Positions 13,961 through 20,841 of a stretch of DNA of 64,000 bases are shown in pieces. The position numbers were made by a program, and so were the translations under genes. The notes below the pieces were generated by a model, which was given only the letters and a program-made list of their open reading frames with translations, ran no database searches and had not been told where the DNA came from. The DNA comes from Elusimicrobiota bacterium. Its GTDB lineage: Bacteria > Elusimicrobiota > Elusimicrobia > UBA1565 > UBA9628. The stretch is from the NCBI GenBank assembly GCA_023213235.1, contig CP096137.1, positions 71,587 to 135,586 of the forward strand. The letters run 5' to 3'. Every line of letters begins with the position of its first letter. Positions within the stretch are counted from its first letter, which is position 1.

Positions 13961-15399
13961 GTGAAACAATACGAGCTCGTCGTCGGCCTGGAAGTCCACT
14001 GCCAGCTGGCGACCAAGACCAAGCTGTTCTGCTCCTGCGCCACCGACGGCTTCGGCACGACGCCGAACAGCCGCGTGTGCCCCGTGTGCACGGCCCAGCC
14101 CGGCGTCCTCCCGGTGCTCAATCGCCGCGCCGTCGAGCTCGCCTACCAGGCCGCGCTCGCGCTCGAGTGCCAGATCGCGCCGCAGTCGATTTTCGCGAGA
14201 AAAAATTACTTTTATCCGGACCTTCCGAAGGCCTATCAGATCTCGCAGTACGATCAGCCGTACTCGCAACATGGCAAATTGACCATGACGGTCAACGGCT
14301 CCCAGAAGACCGTCGGGATCACGCGTATTCACATGGAGGAGGATGCCGGCAAATTGGTCCATGATCAGGGCTCGGGGTCGTTGGTCGACCTGAACCGGGC
14401 CGGTATTCCGTTGATGGAGATCGTCAGCGAGCCGGATATCCGTTCCTCGGAAGAAGCCTACGCCTATCTGACGGCCTTGAAAGAGGTCATCCAGTTCGTG
14501 GGCTCCTCGCGCTGCGACATGGAGAAGGGCGAGATGCGCTGCGACGCCAACGTCTCCGTGCGGCCCGCCGGAACGAAAGAGTTCGGCACCCGCACGGAAA
14601 CCAAGAACCTCAACTCCTTCAAGAACGTCAAGGACGCCATCGACGCCGAGTTCCGCCGCCAGGTGGAGATCATCGAGTCCGGCGGCAAGATCGTCCAGGA
14701 GACGCGCCTCTGGGACGCCAACACCCAGTCCGGCCGCTCGATGCGCTCGAAGGAAGACGCGCACGACTACCGCTACTTCCCCGACCCCGATCTCGTCCCG
14801 CTCGTCGCCGACCCGCACTGGCTCTCCGGCCTGCAGGCGAATCTGCCGGAACTGCCGGCCAAAAAAGGGCTCGCTTTACCGGGGAATTGGGGCTATCCTC
14901 CTATGACTCCGAGGTTCTGACGGGCGACAAGACGTTGGCCGACTATTTCGAGAAGGCCGTCGCTTCCGCCCCCTCGGGCTCCGCGAAAACCGTGTCCAAC
15001 CTGCTGACCACCGAGATGCTGGGCCGCCTCAACGCGGAAGGCAAGTCCGCCGCCCAGTCGCCCGTTCCGGCCGCCCACCTGGGAGGCCTCGCCGCGCTCG
15101 TCGCGGGCGGCACCCTGTCGTCGAAGGGCGCCAAGGACGTGTTCGCGAAGATGTGGGAGACGGGCAAGGACCCCAAGGCGCTCGTGGCCGAGCTCGGGCT
15201 GGCCCAGGTCTCGGACGACAAGCAGGTGCTGGAGTGGGTCAAAGAGGCGCTCGCCGCCAACCCGAAGGCCGCCGCCGACCTCAAGGGCGGCAAGGACGCC
15301 GCGATCGGCTCGATCGTCGGCGCCGTCATGAAGCTCTCCAAGGGTAAGGCCAATCCCGCCCTCGTCAACAAGCTCATCAAGGAGGCCGTAAAAGCATGA
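13961..15399 (+). CDS. gatB: Asp/Glu-tRNA amidotransferase subunit B, with a frame break in the A6G3 run 14861-14869.
   Basis: ORF 13961..14920 ([45 protein letters not shown]) joins ORF 14887..15399. Adding one A gives ..[26 protein letters not shown]... Confidence 0.9.
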
Positions 15400-18300
15400 A
15401 TCGTCTGGTACCCCTCGCTCTCGCCGTCCTGCTCGCCGTCCCGGCGGGAGCCTACGACACGATCCGCTTTCTCGAGCCCATCAAAGGCGACGAGATGGCC
15501 AAGCCCGTCGCCGCGGCCGCGGCCTCGGACCGGCTCTACGTCGTCGACGAAAAGAAGAACATGCTCTTCCTGTACGACATGGGCGGCAAGCTCATCAAGT
15601 CGACGGGACGCTCCGGCGCCCAGACGGGGGCCTTCAACTCGCCGCGCGGCGTCGCGGTCGGGCCGAAGGGCAACGTGTACGTCGCCGACACCGGCAACCA
15701 CCGCGTGCAGATCTTCGACCGCGACGGGAACTTCGTCTACTCCTTCGGCGAGAAGGGCTCCGAGCCCGGCAAGCTGAAGTCGCCGGAGTCCGTCTCCATC
15801 GGCGCCGACGGCCGCATCTACGTCGCCGACACCGGCAACAACCGCATCCAGGTCTTCACGAACGAGGGCATCCTGCTCTTCCTGTTCTCCCGCTACGGCA
15901 AGGAGCCGGGCCTGCTGACCAACCCGACGCGCGTCGCCGTCGATCCGTCGGACAACGTCTTCGTCCTCGACAAGGGCAACGAGCGCATCCAGAAGTTCGA
16001 CTCCTCGGCCAAGTTCGTCAAAGAGTTCGCGCTGCTCGGCAACGACTTCACCGTCGACCAGTACGGCTTCCTGTACGTCCTCGACGGCCGCAACGGCAAG
16101 GTCATCGAGCAGAGCGGCGACGGCTTCATCATGGGCCGCTTCGGCTCGCTCGGTTCCGGCGTCGGGCAGATGAAGAAGGCCGAGGGGCTCGCCGTCACTC
16201 CCGAGGGCCTGATCGTCGTCCTCGACACGGGCAACGGGCGCATCCACCGCGTCGAGCTCGCGAACAAGCTCAAGATCCGGACGCTGCCGCTGAACCTGCA
16301 GACCAAGATGTCCGTCTCCGGCCCGTCGCGCGCGTGGCCGTACTCGGCCTCCGTGCTCGCGCCGTTCGGCGACGATCTCTACGCCTACCTCCCGAAGGAG
16401 GCCCAGTTCGTCATCATCGACGACAAGGGCAAGGAGAAGTCCCGCTTCGGCGCCTCGAAGGGCAAGGGCGGCGACGTGACGCGCGGCGTCGGCGGCATGG
16501 CCGTGGCCAAGACCCCCAAGGTCGACGGCCTCTACGTCACGGACAACCCGAACCACCGCCTCCAGCAGTTCGAGACCGACGGCAAGTGGAAGTCCAACGT
16601 CGGCGAGGCGCAGGGCTTCTTCGACAGCAAGAAGCGCGAAGGCCGCATGAAGAATCCCAACGGCGTCGCCATCAACGGCGAGGGCGTCGTCTACGTCGCC
16701 GACACCGGCAACCAGCGCATCGACGCGTTCAGCCCCGAGGGCGTGTTCCTGTTCGGCTTCGGCCCGAAGGTCGGCAACTACATGCTGCTCGAGCCCGTCG
16801 CCGTCGCCTGGGACAAGGCCGGCTTCATCTACTTCGTCGACAAGGGCCTCAAGCGCGTGTTCAAGTGCGAGCCTTCCGGCGCCTACATCGCCTCGTGGGG
16901 CGAGGACGGCGACGGCCCCGGCGAGTTCAAGTCGCCCGTCTCGATCGCCTTCGACGGCCAGAACTACCTCTACACGCTCGACTCGATCCTGCGCCGCGTC
17001 AGCGTCCACACCAAGGACGGCAAGTGGCTCGCGGACTTCTTCGCGGGCGGCAAGCAGGAGCGAGAGCTCCTGGATCCCGTCGCCGTCTCCGTCCAGGGCG
17101 ACAAGCTCGTCATCGCCGACAAGGGCAAGGCCCGCCTGGTCAGCTACGATCTCCACCCGATGCTGACGGCGCCCGCCTCCGTCTCGACGACCACCAAGGA
17201 CGGGATCGTCGCCATCTCCTGGGAGCCGGTCGCCGACCCGTGGACGGGCGGCTACGTCGTGACCCGCGCCACGAGCCCCGCCGGCCCGTGGGCGACCGCC
17301 GGCGAGACCAAGACCGAGACGTTCCAGGACTCCGAGGTCACGCCGTACGAGAAGTACTGGTACCGCGTCGCGACCAAGGCCAAGACCTCCGACGTCGGCC
17401 CCGCGGGCCGCTCGATCGACGTGTTCGTCTCGGGCTCCTTCAACCGGTCGCCCGTCGAGATCTCGACGGTCACGCTCGGCGACATCTTCGCGGCCAACTA
17501 CAAGTGGTACCTGCGCAACCCGATGGGCGTCGCGACCCTGACGAACAACGTCAACGCGCCCTTCGAGAACGTGAAGCTCACGTTCAAGCTCAAGGACTAC
17601 ATGGACTTCGGCTTCGACACCGAGATCAAGAAGCTCGCGGCCAAGCAGTCCGTCGACGTGCCTCTGATCGCGACGCTCAACAACAAGGTCCTCGAGATCT
17701 CCGAGGACACGCCGATCCAGGCCGAGTTCACGATGACGTACTTCGAGAGCGGCAAGCAGCAGACGGTCTCGATCACCAAGCCCCTGCGCCTGTACTCGAA
17801 GAACGCGATCACGTGGCAGGACCCGCGCCGCATCGCGAACTTCGTGACGCGCAAGGACCCGCCGGTGCGCGACTTCGTGCGCTCCGTCTCGACGCTCGAG
17901 TTCAAGAACCGCAAGGCGAGCGCGCTGAACACGCCGGCGCTCAAGGCGATGCGCCTGTGGAACGCGCTGTCGGAGTACGGGCTGAAGTTCGTCGCCAACC
18001 CGGCCAACCCGTTCGAGGCCGCGCACGACGACCCCAACTTCCCGGTCGACTACACGCAGTTCCCGCGCGAGACGCTGCGCAGCAAGTCCGGCCAGTGCTC
18101 GGACCTGACGTCGCTGTACGCCGCGATGCTCGAGGACAGCGAGGTCCGCGTCGCGATCCTCGACTACCCGGGCCACATGACGCTCATGTTCGACACCGAG
18201 GCCGAGGACGCGGCCGAGGCCGGCATGCCCGCCGACCTGCTCGTCGAGCACGACGGCACCATGTGGGTGCCCGTCGAGGTCACCTACATCGGCAAGCCGT

Positions 18301-18899
18301 TCATCGACGCGGTGTCGAAGGCGGCCTACGCCTACAAGGCCGAGGCCGACAAGGGCCGCGTGAAGTCCTACAGCCTGCACAAGGCCTGGGGCACCTACGA
18401 GCCCGTCACGATGCCGCCGACCGACTTCTCGCCGAAGTTCCCGGAGACGACGGGCCTCGAGCGCCGCTACGACGACCAGGTCAACGTGCTCGCCAAGGAC
18501 CGCTACAACTTCCTCAAGAAGCAGTATGAGTCCGACATCCGCCGCAACGGCAAGGATATCGAGGCTCAGCTGCAGCTCGGCATCATCGAGTACCAGTTCG
18601 GCAACCGCGAGGCGGCCGTCACCGAGTTCAACAAGGTGCTGTCCCTCGACCCGTCGAACTCGTCGGCGCTCAACAACCTCGGCTCGGTCGCCTTCCTCGA
18701 GGGCGACAACGTCGAGGCCGAGAAGCGCTTCACGCAGGCCTCCGAGGCCGAGCCCGAGGACCCGATGATCTGGCTGAACCTCGTGAAGACGTCGCTGCGC
18801 CTCAAGAAGGCCGACAAGGCGAAGGCGATGGGCGAGAAGGCCGTCGCGCTCGCCCCGTCGTTCAAGCCGGCCGTCGACAGCCTGATCAAGGGAAGCTGA
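15396..18899 (+). CDS. Large exported multidomain protein: about 12 NHL repeats, an FN3-like module, a transglutaminase-like Cys-His core, and C-terminal TPR repeats.
   Basis: ORF 15396..18899 (1167 aa) is intact. Signal peptide is [19 protein letters not shown]. The NHL signature recurs (P.GVAV...G.IYVADTGN.RIQ.F). The transglutaminase-like segment is SGQCSDLTSLYAAMLED..YPGHMTLMFD..WVPVEVT. The TPR tail is ..QLGIIEYQFGNREAAVTEFNKVLSLDPSNS... Confidence 0.8.
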   Translation: MNRLVPLALAVLLAVPAGAYDTIRFLEPIKGDEMAKPVAAAAASDRLYVVDEKKNMLFLYDMGGKLIKSTGRSGAQTGAFNSPRGVAVGPKGNVYVADTGNHRVQIFDRDGNFVYSFGEKGSEPGKLKSPESVSIGADGRIYVADTGNNRIQVFTNEGILLFLFSRYGKEPGLLTNPTRVAVDPSDNVFVLDKGNERIQKFDSSAKFVKEFALLGNDFTVDQYGFLYVLDGRNGKVIEQSGDGFIMGRFGSLGSGVGQMKKAEGLAVTPEGLIVVLDTGNGRIHRVELANKLKIRTLPLNLQTKMSVSGPSRAWPYSASVLAPFGDDLYAYLPKEAQFVIIDDKGKEKSRFGASKGKGGDVTRGVGGMAVAKTPKVDGLYVTDNPNHRLQQFETDGKWKSNVGEAQGFFDSKKREGRMKNPNGVAINGEGVVYVADTGNQRIDAFSPEGVFLFGFGPKVGNYMLLEPVAVAWDKAGFIYFVDKGLKRVFKCEPSGAYIASWGEDGDGPGEFKSPVSIAFDGQNYLYTLDSILRRVSVHTKDGKWLADFFAGGKQERELLDPVAVSVQGDKLVIADKGKARLVSYDLHPMLTAPASVSTTTKDGIVAISWEPVADPWTGGYVVTRATSPAGPWATAGETKTETFQDSEVTPYEKYWYRVATKAKTSDVGPAGRSIDVFVSGSFNRSPVEISTVTLGDIFAANYKWYLRNPMGVATLTNNVNAPFENVKLTFKLKDYMDFGFDTEIKKLAAKQSVDVPLIATLNNKVLEISEDTPIQAEFTMTYFESGKQQTVSITKPLRLYSKNAITWQDPRRIANFVTRKDPPVRDFVRSVSTLEFKNRKASALNTPALKAMRLWNALSEYGLKFVANPANPFEAAHDDPNFPVDYTQFPRETLRSKSGQCSDLTSLYAAMLEDSEVRVAILDYPGHMTLMFDTEAEDAAEAGMPADLLVEHDGTMWVPVEVTYIGKPFIDAVSKAAYAYKAEADKGRVKSYSLHKAWGTYEPVTMPPTDFSPKFPETTGLERRYDDQVNVLAKDRYNFLKKQYESDIRRNGKDIEAQLQLGIIEYQFGNREAAVTEFNKVLSLDPSNSSALNNLGSVAFLEGDNVEAEKRFTQASEAEPEDPMIWLNLVKTSLRLKKADKAKAMGEKAVALAPSFKPAVDSLIKGS

Positions 18900-18921: not shown

Positions 18922-19383
18922 ATGAAAACGCTGATCATCGCCGTGATCCTCGCCGCCTTGGCCGTGACGTCGCACGCCCAGGCGCAGGAGGCCAAGAAGA
19001 CCGGCTGGGGCGACTTCTTCAAGAATCTGAAGAACTCGCTGTCGCAGTCCGCCGTCAGCAGCGAGCGCAAGCGCGGCCGCAACGCGCAGGGCGTGGCCGC
19101 CGTCCGCGGCGACGACCAGTCCAAGAAGAACTTCGCCGATCCCAACGAGCCCGGGCTCAAGGGCGACGCCAAGAGCGCGAAGGTCCGCCGCGAGATGGCC
19201 TACGACCAGGAGCTCGAGGCCGCCATCGACCTCGTGAACAAGGGCAAGCTCGACGAGAGCCTCAAGGCGCTCGAGAACTTCAAGACGGCCCACCCGAAGC
19301 ACAAGACCGCCGACGTCGACAAGGCGATCGAGGGCGTCAAGGCGATGCAGGCCGAGAAGGCCGCCGCGCCCGCCGCTCAGTAA
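18922..19383 (+). CDS. Small secreted hypothetical protein (153 aa).
   Basis: ORF 18922..19383. A GGAGGAG Shine-Dalgarno lies 8 nt upstream. Signal peptide is MKTLIIAVILAALAVTSHAQA. No family recognised. Confidence 0.55.
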   Translation: MKTLIIAVILAALAVTSHAQAQEAKKTGWGDFFKNLKNSLSQSAVSSERKRGRNAQGVAAVRGDDQSKKNFADPNEPGLKGDAKSAKVRREMAYDQELEAAIDLVNKGKLDESLKALENFKTAHPKHKTADVDKAIEGVKAMQAEKAAAPAAQ

Positions 19384-19403
19384 GCCGCCGCTCCGCCGGA
19401 CAA

Positions 19404-19438
19404 CGGGCCCCCGCCGCGAGGCGGGGCCCGCTATTTTC
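19404..19438 (+). terminator. Rho-independent terminator.
   Basis: CGGGCCCCCGCC-GCGA-GGCGGGGCCCG gives 11 bp with one bulged C and a GNRA loop, followed by CTATTTTC. It lies 21 nt after the stop at 19383. Confidence 0.65.
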
Positions 19439-19481
19439 GCCGTATCCGGCGAGCGGCTCGACTTAAACACAGGCGCTCCGC

Positions 19482-19509
19482 TCTCAACTGTTGTCGACAA
19501 CAGTTGAGA
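19482..19509. repeat. 28-bp perfect palindrome with no loop.
   Basis: TCTCAACTGTTGTCGACAACAGTTGAGA. It is made of two sub-palindromes, CAACTGTTG and CAACAGTTG, around a central TCGA. Confidence 0.9.
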
Positions 19510-19543
19510 AGGACTTCCCGGTGAATAACACGGAGGCGTGGGG

Positions 19544-19572
19544 TTGACCTCGCTTCAGTTCGAGGCTACACT
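19544..19572 (+). promoter_or_regulatory. Sigma-70-type promoter of the islet operon, with leaderless geometry.
   Basis: TTGACC (19544-19549), 17-nt spacer, TACACT (19567-19572), 6 nt, ATG at 19579. Confidence 0.55.
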
Positions 19573-19578
19573 GTCGAA

Positions 19579-20163
19579 ATGCGACCATCAGTCGTATTGA
19601 CCCTGTTATTCGTCACTTCAGCTTCGGCTGCCGACGTAAAGCCGAACCTTTTGCGCGTCGGGTCGGACGTATATACTCTGAGTAGCGCGAGCAAAGGCCA
19701 GGGTCCCGTGACCGTGTCGAAGCAAGACGCCAGGGATAAGGCGCGCGTCTTCAAGAATTATCGCCTCGGCGTCGCCGCCGACGGGACGATCTCGGAGCTC
19801 GCGAATTGCGCGGAAACGGCGCTCGGTCCGAACTGCGTGGAGATCGAGACAGGCGGCGGCAAGTACATGCTTCCTTCCCTTGAATCCCTCTTCATCGGGG
19901 ATGAAAAGCCCTGGATCGCCGTCATGATCAGAGGCAAGCGCACGAAGATTCCGCTTCCGATGGACGCCGGAAGAATCCGATCCGTTGCGGCGACCTCGGG
20001 CGGAATACGCCTCGTCGTTTTTGCGCAGAAATCGCTCGGCCGCCGCAGCGAGGGCGGACGTGAGATGTTCGGGGTGGCGCACGGCGGCGTCTATAAGATC
20101 GTTGAAATAGCTGCCGACGCGGTCAAATCGGAATCGATCGCCAAGACGGAGCCGCGGCCATGA
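19579..20163 (+). CDS. Secreted hypothetical protein (194 aa).
   Basis: ORF 19579..20163. Signal peptide is MRPSVVLTLLFVTSASAAD. No recognisable family. It lies in the lower-GC islet. Confidence 0.55.
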   Translation: MRPSVVLTLLFVTSASAADVKPNLLRVGSDVYTLSSASKGQGPVTVSKQDARDKARVFKNYRLGVAADGTISELANCAETALGPNCVEIETGGGKYMLPSLESLFIGDEKPWIAVMIRGKRTKIPLPMDAGRIRSVAATSGGIRLVVFAQKSLGRRSEGGREMFGVAHGGVYKIVEIAADAVKSESIAKTEPRP

Positions 20164-20366
20164 AGCCGCACGGAAGAATTCTCATCCTAACCGCCCTGAC
20201 GGCGGCGACGATCTCAGCACTCAGTGTTAAGGCCGGCGAAACGAAAGAGGACTGCGCGAATTGCCAATACCGGCCGGGCGATCCTCCCTGCGCGTGTCTC
20301 GGCAGGATAGATCCAAACGGCTGTTGGTATTATCGCTGCGACTGCTGCATCGCGCGGAAGCCTTAG
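20160..20366 (+). CDS. Secreted cysteine-rich micro-protein (68 aa, with 8 Cys in a mature part of about 43 aa).
   Basis: ORF 20160..20366. ATGA overlap with the upstream ORF. MKPHGRILILTALTAATISALSVKA | GETKEDCANCQYRPGDPPCACLGRIDPNGCWYYRCDCCIARKP. Confidence 0.5.
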   Translation: MKPHGRILILTALTAATISALSVKAGETKEDCANCQYRPGDPPCACLGRIDPNGCWYYRCDCCIARKP

Positions 20367-20367
20367 G

Positions 20368-20841
20368 CTAGCGCTTGCCCTGTAGACGCTTGATCAGGCC
20401 CGTCGTCGAGTAGCCCTGCTTCAGCGAGACGATCACGACCTTGCCCGCGTATTTCGCTTCGGGAAGGTCTTTGGGCTTGTAGTCGCCGCCCTTCACCTGG
20501 ACGTCGGGACGCAGGCGCGACATGAGCTTCTCGGGCGTCTGCTCGCCGAAGGCGACGACGGCGTCGACGCAGGAGAGCGCGGCCAGGACCTCGGCGCGGT
20601 CGCGCCACTTGTTGATGGGCCGGCCCGGCGCCTTCTCCAATAAACGGACCGAAGAGTCGGTGTTGACGCCCACGACGAGCAGGTCGCCCTGGGCTCGCGC
20701 CTTCTCGAGCACCTTCACGTGCCCGGCGTGCAGGATGTCGAAGACGCCGTTGGTGAACACGACCGCGCGGCCCTCGAAGCGCCACAGCTCCCGCAGCGTC
20801 AAGAGCTTCTTGAGCGGGACGATCTTCGAGGAGGAGTTCAT
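20368..20841 (-). CDS. hldC: D-glycero-beta-D-manno-heptose-1-phosphate adenylyltransferase (RfaE domain II type).
   Basis: ATG at 20841 within ORF 20368..20973. MNSSSKIVPL..VVFTNGVFDILHAGHVKVLEKAR..VGVNTDSSV..VKGGDYKPKDLPE..STTGLIKRL. Confidence 0.85.
   Translation of the reverse strand: MNSSSKIVPLKKLLTLRELWRFEGRAVVFTNGVFDILHAGHVKVLEKARAQGDLLVVGVNTDSSVRLLEKAPGRPINKWRDRAEVLAALSCVDAVVAFGEQTPEKLMSRLRPDVQVKGGDYKPKDLPEAKYAGKVVIVSLKQGYSTTGLIKRLQGKR

Follow-up and report, generated by a model that had tools for sequence, protein, structure and literature searches.

We analysed a stretch of 64,000 nucleotides (nt) from an Elusimicrobiota genome (contig CP096137.1 of assembly GCA_023213235.1, positions 71,587 to 135,586; hereafter the window), in which two overlapping forward-strand genes encode small proteins with predicted signal peptides: a partner protein of 194 residues and, directly downstream, a cysteine-rich mini-protein of 68 residues. 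The open reading frame (ORF) of the mini-protein runs from an ATG at 20160 to a TAG at 20364-20366 (+). Judged from sequence features, its first 25 residues (MKPHGRILILTALTAATISALSVKA, 20160..20234, +) have the layout of a Sec-type signal peptide, with a basic n-region, a hydrophobic core and the residues V-K-A preceding Gly26, and the mature domain of 43 residues occupies 20235..20366 (+) together with the stop codon. The mature part contains eight cysteines, at positions 7, 10, 19, 21, 30, 35, 37 and 38, which gives the framework C-x2-C-x8-C-x-C-x8-C-x4-C-x-CC and places all eight within about 32 residues. An initial annotation, made from the DNA sequence alone, had quoted the 68-residue ORF, its signal peptide and a mature part of about 43 residues exactly as they are found here, and was correct on the number of cysteines and on their spacing in all gaps except the one before the fifth cysteine, which is x8 and not x9.

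Conservation of the mini-protein family

The cysteine density of the mini-protein had been called extreme, and by itself it is within chance in this genome. At a G+C (GC) content of 68.6%, 105 of 35,397 frames of at least 50 amino acids (aa) hold at least eight cysteines in 40 aa, nearly all of them Arg/Ser/Pro-rich off-frames. Because Cys-dense open frames are this common, the status of the gene must rest on other evidence. The amino acid composition of the mini-protein is normal and not Arg/Ser/Pro-rich, and GC peaks at the third codon position of the annotated frame.

A single-sequence word search with the mini-protein found nothing. Homologues came instead from six-frame searches of related genomes, an exhaustive phmmer search against 1.84 billion representatives, scans for the back-translated pattern in 185,579 species genomes and in JGI metagenomes, and a profile that was searched against 5.8 billion clusters. 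Pooled, these searches yielded 12 distinct homologues with approximately 31-57% identity. Of the eight cysteines, seven are invariant, and the remaining one, the first, is present in 11 of the 12 homologues. A Gly, an Asp and a Tyr are near-invariant (11/12 each), and the C-x-C-C motif is present in every member (12/12). The family consensus, C..Ck...G...p.CgCl...d....C.yY.C.CCva., has its conserved core in the segment C-[WL]-[YF]-Y-x-C-x-C-C-[VI], whose Trp is replaced by Leu in 5 of the 12 homologues, and the two long loops between cysteines vary in both sequence and length (x7-10 and x6-10). A lack of conservation of the ORF and its cysteine pattern in relatives had been named beforehand as grounds for rejecting the gene; both are conserved across the family. 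The 12 homologues retain the cysteine framework, a signal peptide, a Shine-Dalgarno sequence and the location directly behind the partner gene, and this comparative sequence evidence shows that the mini-protein ORF is a genuine conserved gene. A chance Cys-rich open frame in GC-rich DNA, for which the abundance of such frames might speak, is effectively refuted by this conservation at 31-57% identity and disfavoured by the normal composition, and we leave it next to no probability.

The short forms of the family measure 59-72 aa and the long forms 106-114 aa, with a spacer or pro-region of 40-50 aa between the signal peptide and the Cys domain in the long forms (L015, L021 and L043). A signal-peptide-like hydrophobic N-terminus, judged from sequence features, is present in all 12 homologues. 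A twin-arginine (RR) occurs in 6 of the 12 members; the window protein (HGRILIL), L015, L021, L041 and L042 lack it. Because the twin-arginine is not conserved, Tat export was rejected, and the sequences make Sec export the likelier route; lipoprotein anchoring was also rejected, as the family has no lipobox Cys. For L020 no signal peptide was called and a frameshift is possible. In this copy (L020 751-1097, on a contig of Logan SRR24269688), the Cys domain (849-1097) is read in another frame than the signal-peptide-like part (751-900), and the copy is either frameshifted and decaying or the product of an assembly error.

The family is rare: the collections searched contain about a dozen of its sequences, and 4 of the 101 genomes from the order carry the two-gene cassette. 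All identifiable hosts are metagenome-assembled genomes (MAGs) of Elusimicrobiota from groundwater or similar sites. The HisRS and GreA neighbours on one short homologue contig are 74% and 59% identical to those of the window genome, and another homologue contig comes from a Hainich well metagenome. Several candidates were discarded: three matches from the exhaustive search (P0002, P0005 and P0006) are repetitive proteins without the Cys framework and were considered spurious, two others (P0003 and P0007), very long proteins matched in several short stretches, were also taken as chance, the pattern matches L016 and L017 (Pseudoalteromonas and Oscillospiraceae) lie inside or antisense to unrelated genes, and the pattern matches L004-L008 are likewise spurious.

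The initial annotation knew of no named family for the mini-protein, and we found no match to it in Pfam, NCBIfam or PDB sequences. The window protein and six homologues have no match in Pfam or NCBIfam even at E <= 1, and the best PDB sequence match, the EGF-like module of MAp19, is non-significant (E = 0.35). No paper joining Elusimicrobia, groundwater and cysteine-rich proteins was found in the literature, and an Rfam scan of 19300-20500 returned no RNA family.

Coupling to an exported partner protein

A homologue of the partner lies immediately upstream of the mini-protein gene at every locus found. In the window, the partner gene (19579..20163, +) encodes a predicted exported, all-beta protein with the signal peptide MRPSVVLTLLFVTSASA, followed by AD, and its TGA stop codon overlaps the ATG of the mini-protein in an ATGA junction (20160-20163, +). 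The Shine-Dalgarno sequence GGAG (20148..20151, +) is located 8 nt upstream of this ATG, within the last codons of the partner, and GGAG, GGAGG or AAGGAG stands at the equivalent place in L012 and L018. Five of the ten loci for which DNA is available have the same junction gap of -4 (ATGA), and the remaining five have gaps between -1 and +17 nt; the P0015 contig, which is outside these ten junctions, also has a 4-nt overlap according to its gene table. Moreover, the subfamilies of the two proteins match, short partners with a Cys pair accompanying mini-proteins with PGDPPCAC and long partners with a YWTD-like tail accompanying those with GENGPCGC. Together, these sequence features support that the mini-protein gene is the downstream member of a two-gene cassette whose genes are obligatorily paired and translationally coupled. 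This pairing is the main clue to the mode of action of the mini-protein; the partner gene, the coupled junction and the horizontal acquisition described below did not figure in the initial annotation.

The partner, too, is without a match in Pfam, NCBIfam or PDB sequences. A profile search with it recovered only six proteins in the whole collection, and 2 of the 401 genomes in a phylum-wide sample have a homologue. A confident AlphaFold2 model based on an eight-sequence alignment (predicted local distance difference test (pLDDT) 84.6, predicted template modelling score (pTM) 0.78) consists entirely of beta strands. Foldseek searches of PDB and BFVD with this model gave weak partial matches, all of them to beta-propellers (neuraminidase, Kelch, WD40 and BNR), the best with E = 8.5e-3 and a template modelling (TM) score of ~0.35. 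Long partner forms end in a YWTD-like strand pair, "VFWxxxxRLFRVD". Without its signal peptide the partner has ~170 residues and is not a full 7-bladed propeller. The invariant residues are Gly, Pro, Ile and one Arg only, and the partner alignment contains no invariant His, Asp, Glu, Ser, Cys or Lys. Because no catalytic-type residue is invariant, the partner looks like a binding scaffold rather than an enzyme. It belongs to an undescribed protein family, and its model suggests a propeller-blade-like fold.

A mobile islet with its own promoter

The cassette lies in an islet of ~926 base pairs (bp) and lower GC (19442..20367), between a common terminator and the hldC stop codon. GC is 0.58-0.62 across 19500-20400 versus ~0.67 in the flanks, and GC at third codon positions (GC3) is 0.68-0.72 in both cassette genes versus 0.97-0.98 in the adjoining core genes. 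In all seven loci with flanks (7/7), the GC of the cassette is 7-15 points under that of its surroundings. Upstream of the islet lies a 153-aa core gene (18922-19383) that is present in 38/38 genomes of the genus, followed by a terminator-like GC-rich hairpin (GGGCCCCGCC-GCGA-GGCGGGGCCC, then GCTATTTTCG; 19407..19441, +), which was identified by eye and marks the left border of the islet. A consensus terminator scan did not list this hairpin, the T-run of which has only 4 T. A homologous hairpin abuts the hldC stop in G001 and G005, which belong to sister species and carry the site empty, with a spacer of only 67-78 nt between the 153-aa gene and hldC. Within the genus, the convergent intergenic site (19384-20367) is a hotspot for variable cargo, which in other species comprises response regulators, sigma-54-type activators, a membrane hydroxylase-like gene and small secreted proteins. 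Elsewhere, the cassette adjoins a putative insertion sequence (IS) transposase fragment (G068; named from sequence only, with no Pfam match), PIN/AAA genes (L019) and, at another locus, a PDDEXK gene. Taken together, these patterns indicate that the cassette is a horizontally acquired, mobile, accessory islet. Its role is most likely accessory and not housekeeping, as it is rare, patchy, foreign in composition and situated at a variable hotspot.

A promoter scan identified a sigma-70-type promoter, TTGACC-17-TACACT (19544..19572, +), whose -10 box ends 6 nt before the partner ATG. The same layout, TTGACN-17/18-TATACT or TATAGT followed after 0-7 nt by ATG, is found in L014, L018 and L015. Because the -10 box is so near the start codon and this layout recurs in three other loci, the cassette mRNA is apparently leaderless and bicistronic. 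At the other end of the islet, the stop codons of the mini-protein (TAG, +) and of hldC (CTA = TAG, -) are one base apart (window 20364-20370) with no terminator between them, and transcripts from either side should therefore run antisense into the opposite gene.

A 28-bp perfect palindrome, TCTCAACTGTTGTCGACAACAGTTGAGA (19482..19509), with the core ACTGT-N8-ACAGT, is located 35 nt upstream of the -35 box. This core has nine copies in the genome versus 0 in Markov simulations; the copies besides that of the window are at positions 524046, 678431, 1063971, 1778178, 2047266, 2454391, 2723382 and 3430154 (G000:C1). Three inner variants exist, of which TAGCCGGCTA is the most frequent; TTGTCGACAA is found in two copies and TTCCCGGGAA in a single one. 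Several copies directly follow terminator hairpins, the second TTGTCGACAA copy lies upstream of an unrelated 192-aa secreted ORF (genome 1778247), and the G024 cassette has a similar palindrome, ACTGTCGGCGCCGACAGT, upstream of its promoter. The palindrome may represent a repeat of the host, the site of a regulator or a target for insertion. Its CTGT-N8-ACAG core resembles the SOS box of the E. coli type, and LexA/SOS control, had it been true, would have pointed to a colicin-like bacteriocin. We rejected this idea, as the palindrome recurs in nine copies in the host and, in the lexA gene of the host (G000:C1 3038174-3038260, -), the -35 (TTGACA) and the -10 (TATCCT) flank a GAAC-N4-GTTC (Cheo-type) box. 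The Cheo-type box suggests that this lineage of Elusimicrobiota uses a Gram-positive-type SOS box.

Neighbouring genes and other exported cysteine-rich proteins

The genome contains a dsbA-dsbB operon (DSBA 85.9 bits, DsbB 44.5 bits), so exported cysteines can be oxidised. It also encodes further exported Cys-rich proteins, and a comparison with two of these found no homology. Outside the window, a lipoprotein (G000:C1 3370885-3371355, +) has the lipobox LALAC, native codon usage and a GC3 of 0.93. It carries four tandem knottin-like repeats, C-x6-C-x6-CC-x4-C-x4-5-C (e.g. CQSSGDCCGVLTCNSNKVC), a spacing that, by its sequence, is of the true inhibitor cystine knot (ICK) type, in a bacterium. 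Also outside the window, in a secreted protein of 223 aa (G000:C1 ~3229491-3230159, +), an N-terminal eight-Cys module, C-x5-C-x3-CC-x9-C-x-C-x2-CC (CQGNDSCAYRCCRGNPGPGHPCICSLCC), is fused to a domain of ~170 aa; hidden Markov model (HMM) tests showed no homology between this protein and the cassette proteins.

Further upstream in the window, 15396-18899 encodes a large exported protein with ~12 NHL blades, a weak transglutaminase-like core and a TPR tail, residues 714-976 of which give a weak match to the anti-phage ProA model (33.6 bits versus a cut-off of 1500). Around other copies of the cassette, the neighbours include two S8 subtilases (G024) and a weak M91-like peptidase (G068), and the remaining copies have housekeeping or mobile-element neighbours. 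Peptidase neighbours were considered too inconsistent among copies to call the mini-protein a protease inhibitor. In ~10 contexts, no cop, cus, mer, czc or metal-sensor gene adjoins the cassette; copA, cus and multicopper-oxidase neighbours are absent from the window, L012-L015, L018-L022 and L041; and no radical S-adenosylmethionine (radical-SAM) gene adjoins the cassette in the contexts examined.

Proposed function and alternative explanations

We propose, at about even odds, that the mini-protein is Sec-exported, probably contains four disulfides and works as a binding pair with its partner, the two forming an accessory and possibly antagonistic or inhibitory module. In this model, the sigma-70 promoter would give rise to a leaderless bicistronic mRNA from which the partner is translated first, and ribosomes would re-initiate at the ATGA overlap with the aid of GGAG, leading to co-production of the two proteins. 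Both would be released into the periplasm by means of their Sec-type signal peptides, and the mini-protein would be cleaved after VKA. DsbA/DsbB would then oxidise the 43-aa domain into a compact, probably four-disulfide, beta-rich fold, with the C-[WL]-[YF]-Y-x-C-x-C-C-[VI] segment as its core and the two inter-Cys loops free to vary. The product would be a stable binding peptide in complex with the non-enzymatic, propeller-blade-like partner, which may act as its carrier, receptor or neutraliser. The pair could thus consist of an antagonistic or inhibitory peptide and its cognate binding, carrier or immunity protein, a role suggested by the variable loops and by the accessory, mobile nature of the cassette. 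The features of the DNA and of the predicted proteins support the transcript, the coupled translation and the Sec export; signal cleavage, disulfide formation, the physical complex of both proteins and the biological role are steps that we infer.

The initial annotation had offered a four-disulfide toxin or inhibitor, a metal chelator and a Sec-exported bacteriocin-like peptide as options. We lean towards a disulfide-stabilised binding peptide because aromatic and hydrophobic residues beside the cysteines are conserved along with turn-type Gly and Asp, because the core has an even number of cysteines and variable loops on a fixed scaffold, because the genome has dsbA-dsbB, and because no copy has a metal-resistance or metal-sensing neighbour. 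Several observations weigh against this proposal. CxxC, CxC and CxCC, all present in the mini-protein, are also typical metal ligands. In L042, Tyr replaces the first Cys and would leave an odd cysteine under a pure disulfide model, and the pro-regions of two long forms add a ninth Cys. The mature mini-protein has a neutral net charge, unlike most membrane-active antimicrobial peptides. Its AlphaFold2 model is poor (pLDDT 58), and a fold search with this low-confidence model returned no match. Finally, an extracellular role is unsupported, because the cassette comes without an outer-membrane export system.

Some of these points would fit a periplasmic binder of soft metals (Cu(I), Zn, Cd or Hg), in which eight thiolates form one or two clusters, the partner is a scaffold or chaperone and the cassette is an acquired metal-tolerance module. 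CxxC and CxC are classical thiolate motifs, a CxCC of the kind found in all 12 homologues binds a tetranuclear Cu cluster in periplasmic CopG (PMC7558416), and the poor model of the mini-protein leaves room for this explanation. A cluster would withstand the loss of a cysteine, as in L042, more readily than a set of disulfides would, and metal resistance is typically carried on mobile, patchy cassettes. Nonetheless, we consider metal binding unlikely, though a serious competitor of the main proposal, given the lack of cop, cus, mer, czc or metal-sensor neighbours in ~10 contexts, the variable spacing of the presumptive ligands (x7-10, x6-10), the absence of any conserved Met or His, the lack of a match to DUF411/CopG or metallothionein models and the oxidising DsbA/B system of the genome. 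The conserved residues by the cysteines (W/L-Y/F-Y, and L/F after CxC) and the turn Gly/Asp are features of a folded core, whereas classical metallothioneins have no aromatic residues.

Two further explanations are, in our judgement, highly improbable. The mini-protein might be a small cross-linked subunit of a periplasmic redox enzyme, with a Tyr/Trp-derived cofactor in the CWYY segment; this would account for a Cys-rich mini-subunit paired with a propeller-like beta protein and for the conserved Tyr and adjoining aromatics. However, the Trp is Leu in 5 of the 12 homologues, the ~170-residue partner is neither a full 7-bladed propeller nor endowed with an invariant catalytic-type residue, no MauG-like haem protein, radical-SAM QhpD or electron-acceptor gene is found in or near any cassette, and the proteins have no sequence match to the methylamine dehydrogenase (MADH) and quinohaemoprotein amine dehydrogenase (QHNDH) families. 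A diffusible, pheromone-like signal, which the partner would bind or process in the periplasm, faces comparable difficulties: no sensor kinase, regulator or exporter is linked to the cassette in any context, the partner has no membrane or signalling domain and the promoter looks constitutive, even though the mini-protein is small, exported and stable and the pro-region of 40-50 aa in L015, L021 and L043 recalls pre-pro-peptides.

Returning to the disulfide-stabilised binding pair, a bolder form of it can be considered, to which we assign a low probability, albeit not a negligible one. In it, the cassette would be a two-component extracytoplasmic system of a hitherto undescribed kind, in which a four-disulfide mini-protein with hypervariable loops is made in a fixed ratio with a mini beta-propeller that carries, presents or neutralises it, the two having new folds or belonging to new families and constituting a horizontally moving module, either of inter-microbial weapon/immunity or of protease-inhibitor type, in groundwater Elusimicrobiota.

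Relation to known systems

The heat-stable enterotoxins STa and STb of E. coli are folded by DsbA in the periplasm, where they acquire 2-3 disulfides (PMC6356903). By its sequence, the mini-protein resembles them in layout: the short precursor, of ~70 aa, starts with a Sec-type signal peptide and ends in a Cys-dense part, in some cases with a pro-region in between; the short (59-72 aa) and long (106-114 aa) forms of the family mirror the pre- and pre-pro-layouts, and dsbA-dsbB is present in the genome. It differs in having eight cysteines, not four or six, and in its co-translated partner, which ST genes do not have. Its hosts are groundwater Elusimicrobiota, with no evidence of TolC-type export or of an animal target, and it shows no Pfam match or sequence similarity to the Enterotoxin_ST family. 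The resemblance may thus serve as a model of biogenesis only, with no homology and no implied target.

CopG (DUF411) is involved in periplasmic copper resistance and ligates a Cu4 cluster through a conserved C-x-C-C (PMC7558416), the motif that is invariant in the mini-protein. CopG has a thioredoxin fold, a pair of neighbouring Met ligands and cop/cus genes to which it is linked; the mini-protein has no conserved Met, no thioredoxin fold and no copper genes nearby, and the DUF411 Pfam model matches neither it nor its homologues. The size differs as well, the CopG domain being ~15 kDa and that of the mini-protein 35-45 aa. Bacterial metallothioneins of the SmtA/BmtA type, which are cytoplasmic and have few or no aromatic residues, differ from the mini-protein, which has a conserved Trp/Leu-Tyr/Phe-Tyr segment and a signal-peptide-like N-terminus, and their models matched neither the window protein nor six homologues at E <= 1.

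The MADH light chain and the QHNDH gamma subunit are small disulfide-rich or cross-linked periplasmic chains bound to a beta-propeller subunit, an arrangement reminiscent of a Cys-rich mini-protein with a partner that gives only propeller-type fold matches. The partner has ~170 aa and only partial propeller matches (E >= 0.0085), the Trp that would form the cofactor is not conserved in the mini-protein family, maturation or electron-transfer genes are absent nearby, and no homology was found. SCIFF and ranthipeptides, which are ribosomally synthesised and post-translationally modified peptides (RiPPs) matured by radical-SAM enzymes and carrying a leader peptide in place of a Sec signal, are set apart from the mini-protein by its Sec-like N-terminus and the lack of an adjacent radical-SAM maturase.

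The mini-protein shares with knottin-like, defensin-like and EGF-like proteins a high Cys density, an even count, Gly and aromatic residues beside cysteines, and variable loops on a fixed scaffold. Its C-C-C-C-C-C-CC framework, with eight cysteines and the doublet at the C-terminal end, differs from the six-cysteine knottin C-C-CC-C-C, whose disulfides are knotted as I-IV, II-V and III-VI, and it does not fit the CS-alpha-beta pattern. It is further distinguished from cystine-stabilised mini-proteins by its bacterial host, its obligatory partner and the absence of a significant sequence or fold match. Hence, while an exported eight-Cys mini-protein without a named family, as first described, is borne out, the knottin-like framework offered as one option for it and the gap count are not. 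By its sequence, the mini-protein is a new family within the exported cysteine-stabilised mini-proteins, set apart by an obligatory partner from a second new family.

Significance

Sec-exported mini-proteins of ribosomal origin with several disulfides abound in animals, plants and fungi, but, to our knowledge, few bacterial families have been described. The cassette provides a conserved bacterial example, with eight cysteines in ~32 residues, an obligatory partner, a defined promoter and signs of horizontal transfer, in an uncultured phylum about whose envelope biology very little is known. Should metal binding prove correct, the mini-protein would be a new periplasmic thiolate-cluster protein. 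If the two-component system with hypervariable loops exists, the mini-protein would be the bacterial equivalent of scaffolds of the venom or defensin type. If the mini-protein is a disulfide-locked binder, it would constitute a very small and stable new scaffold with naturally variable loops, and together with its partner it would represent a new type of accessory envelope module.

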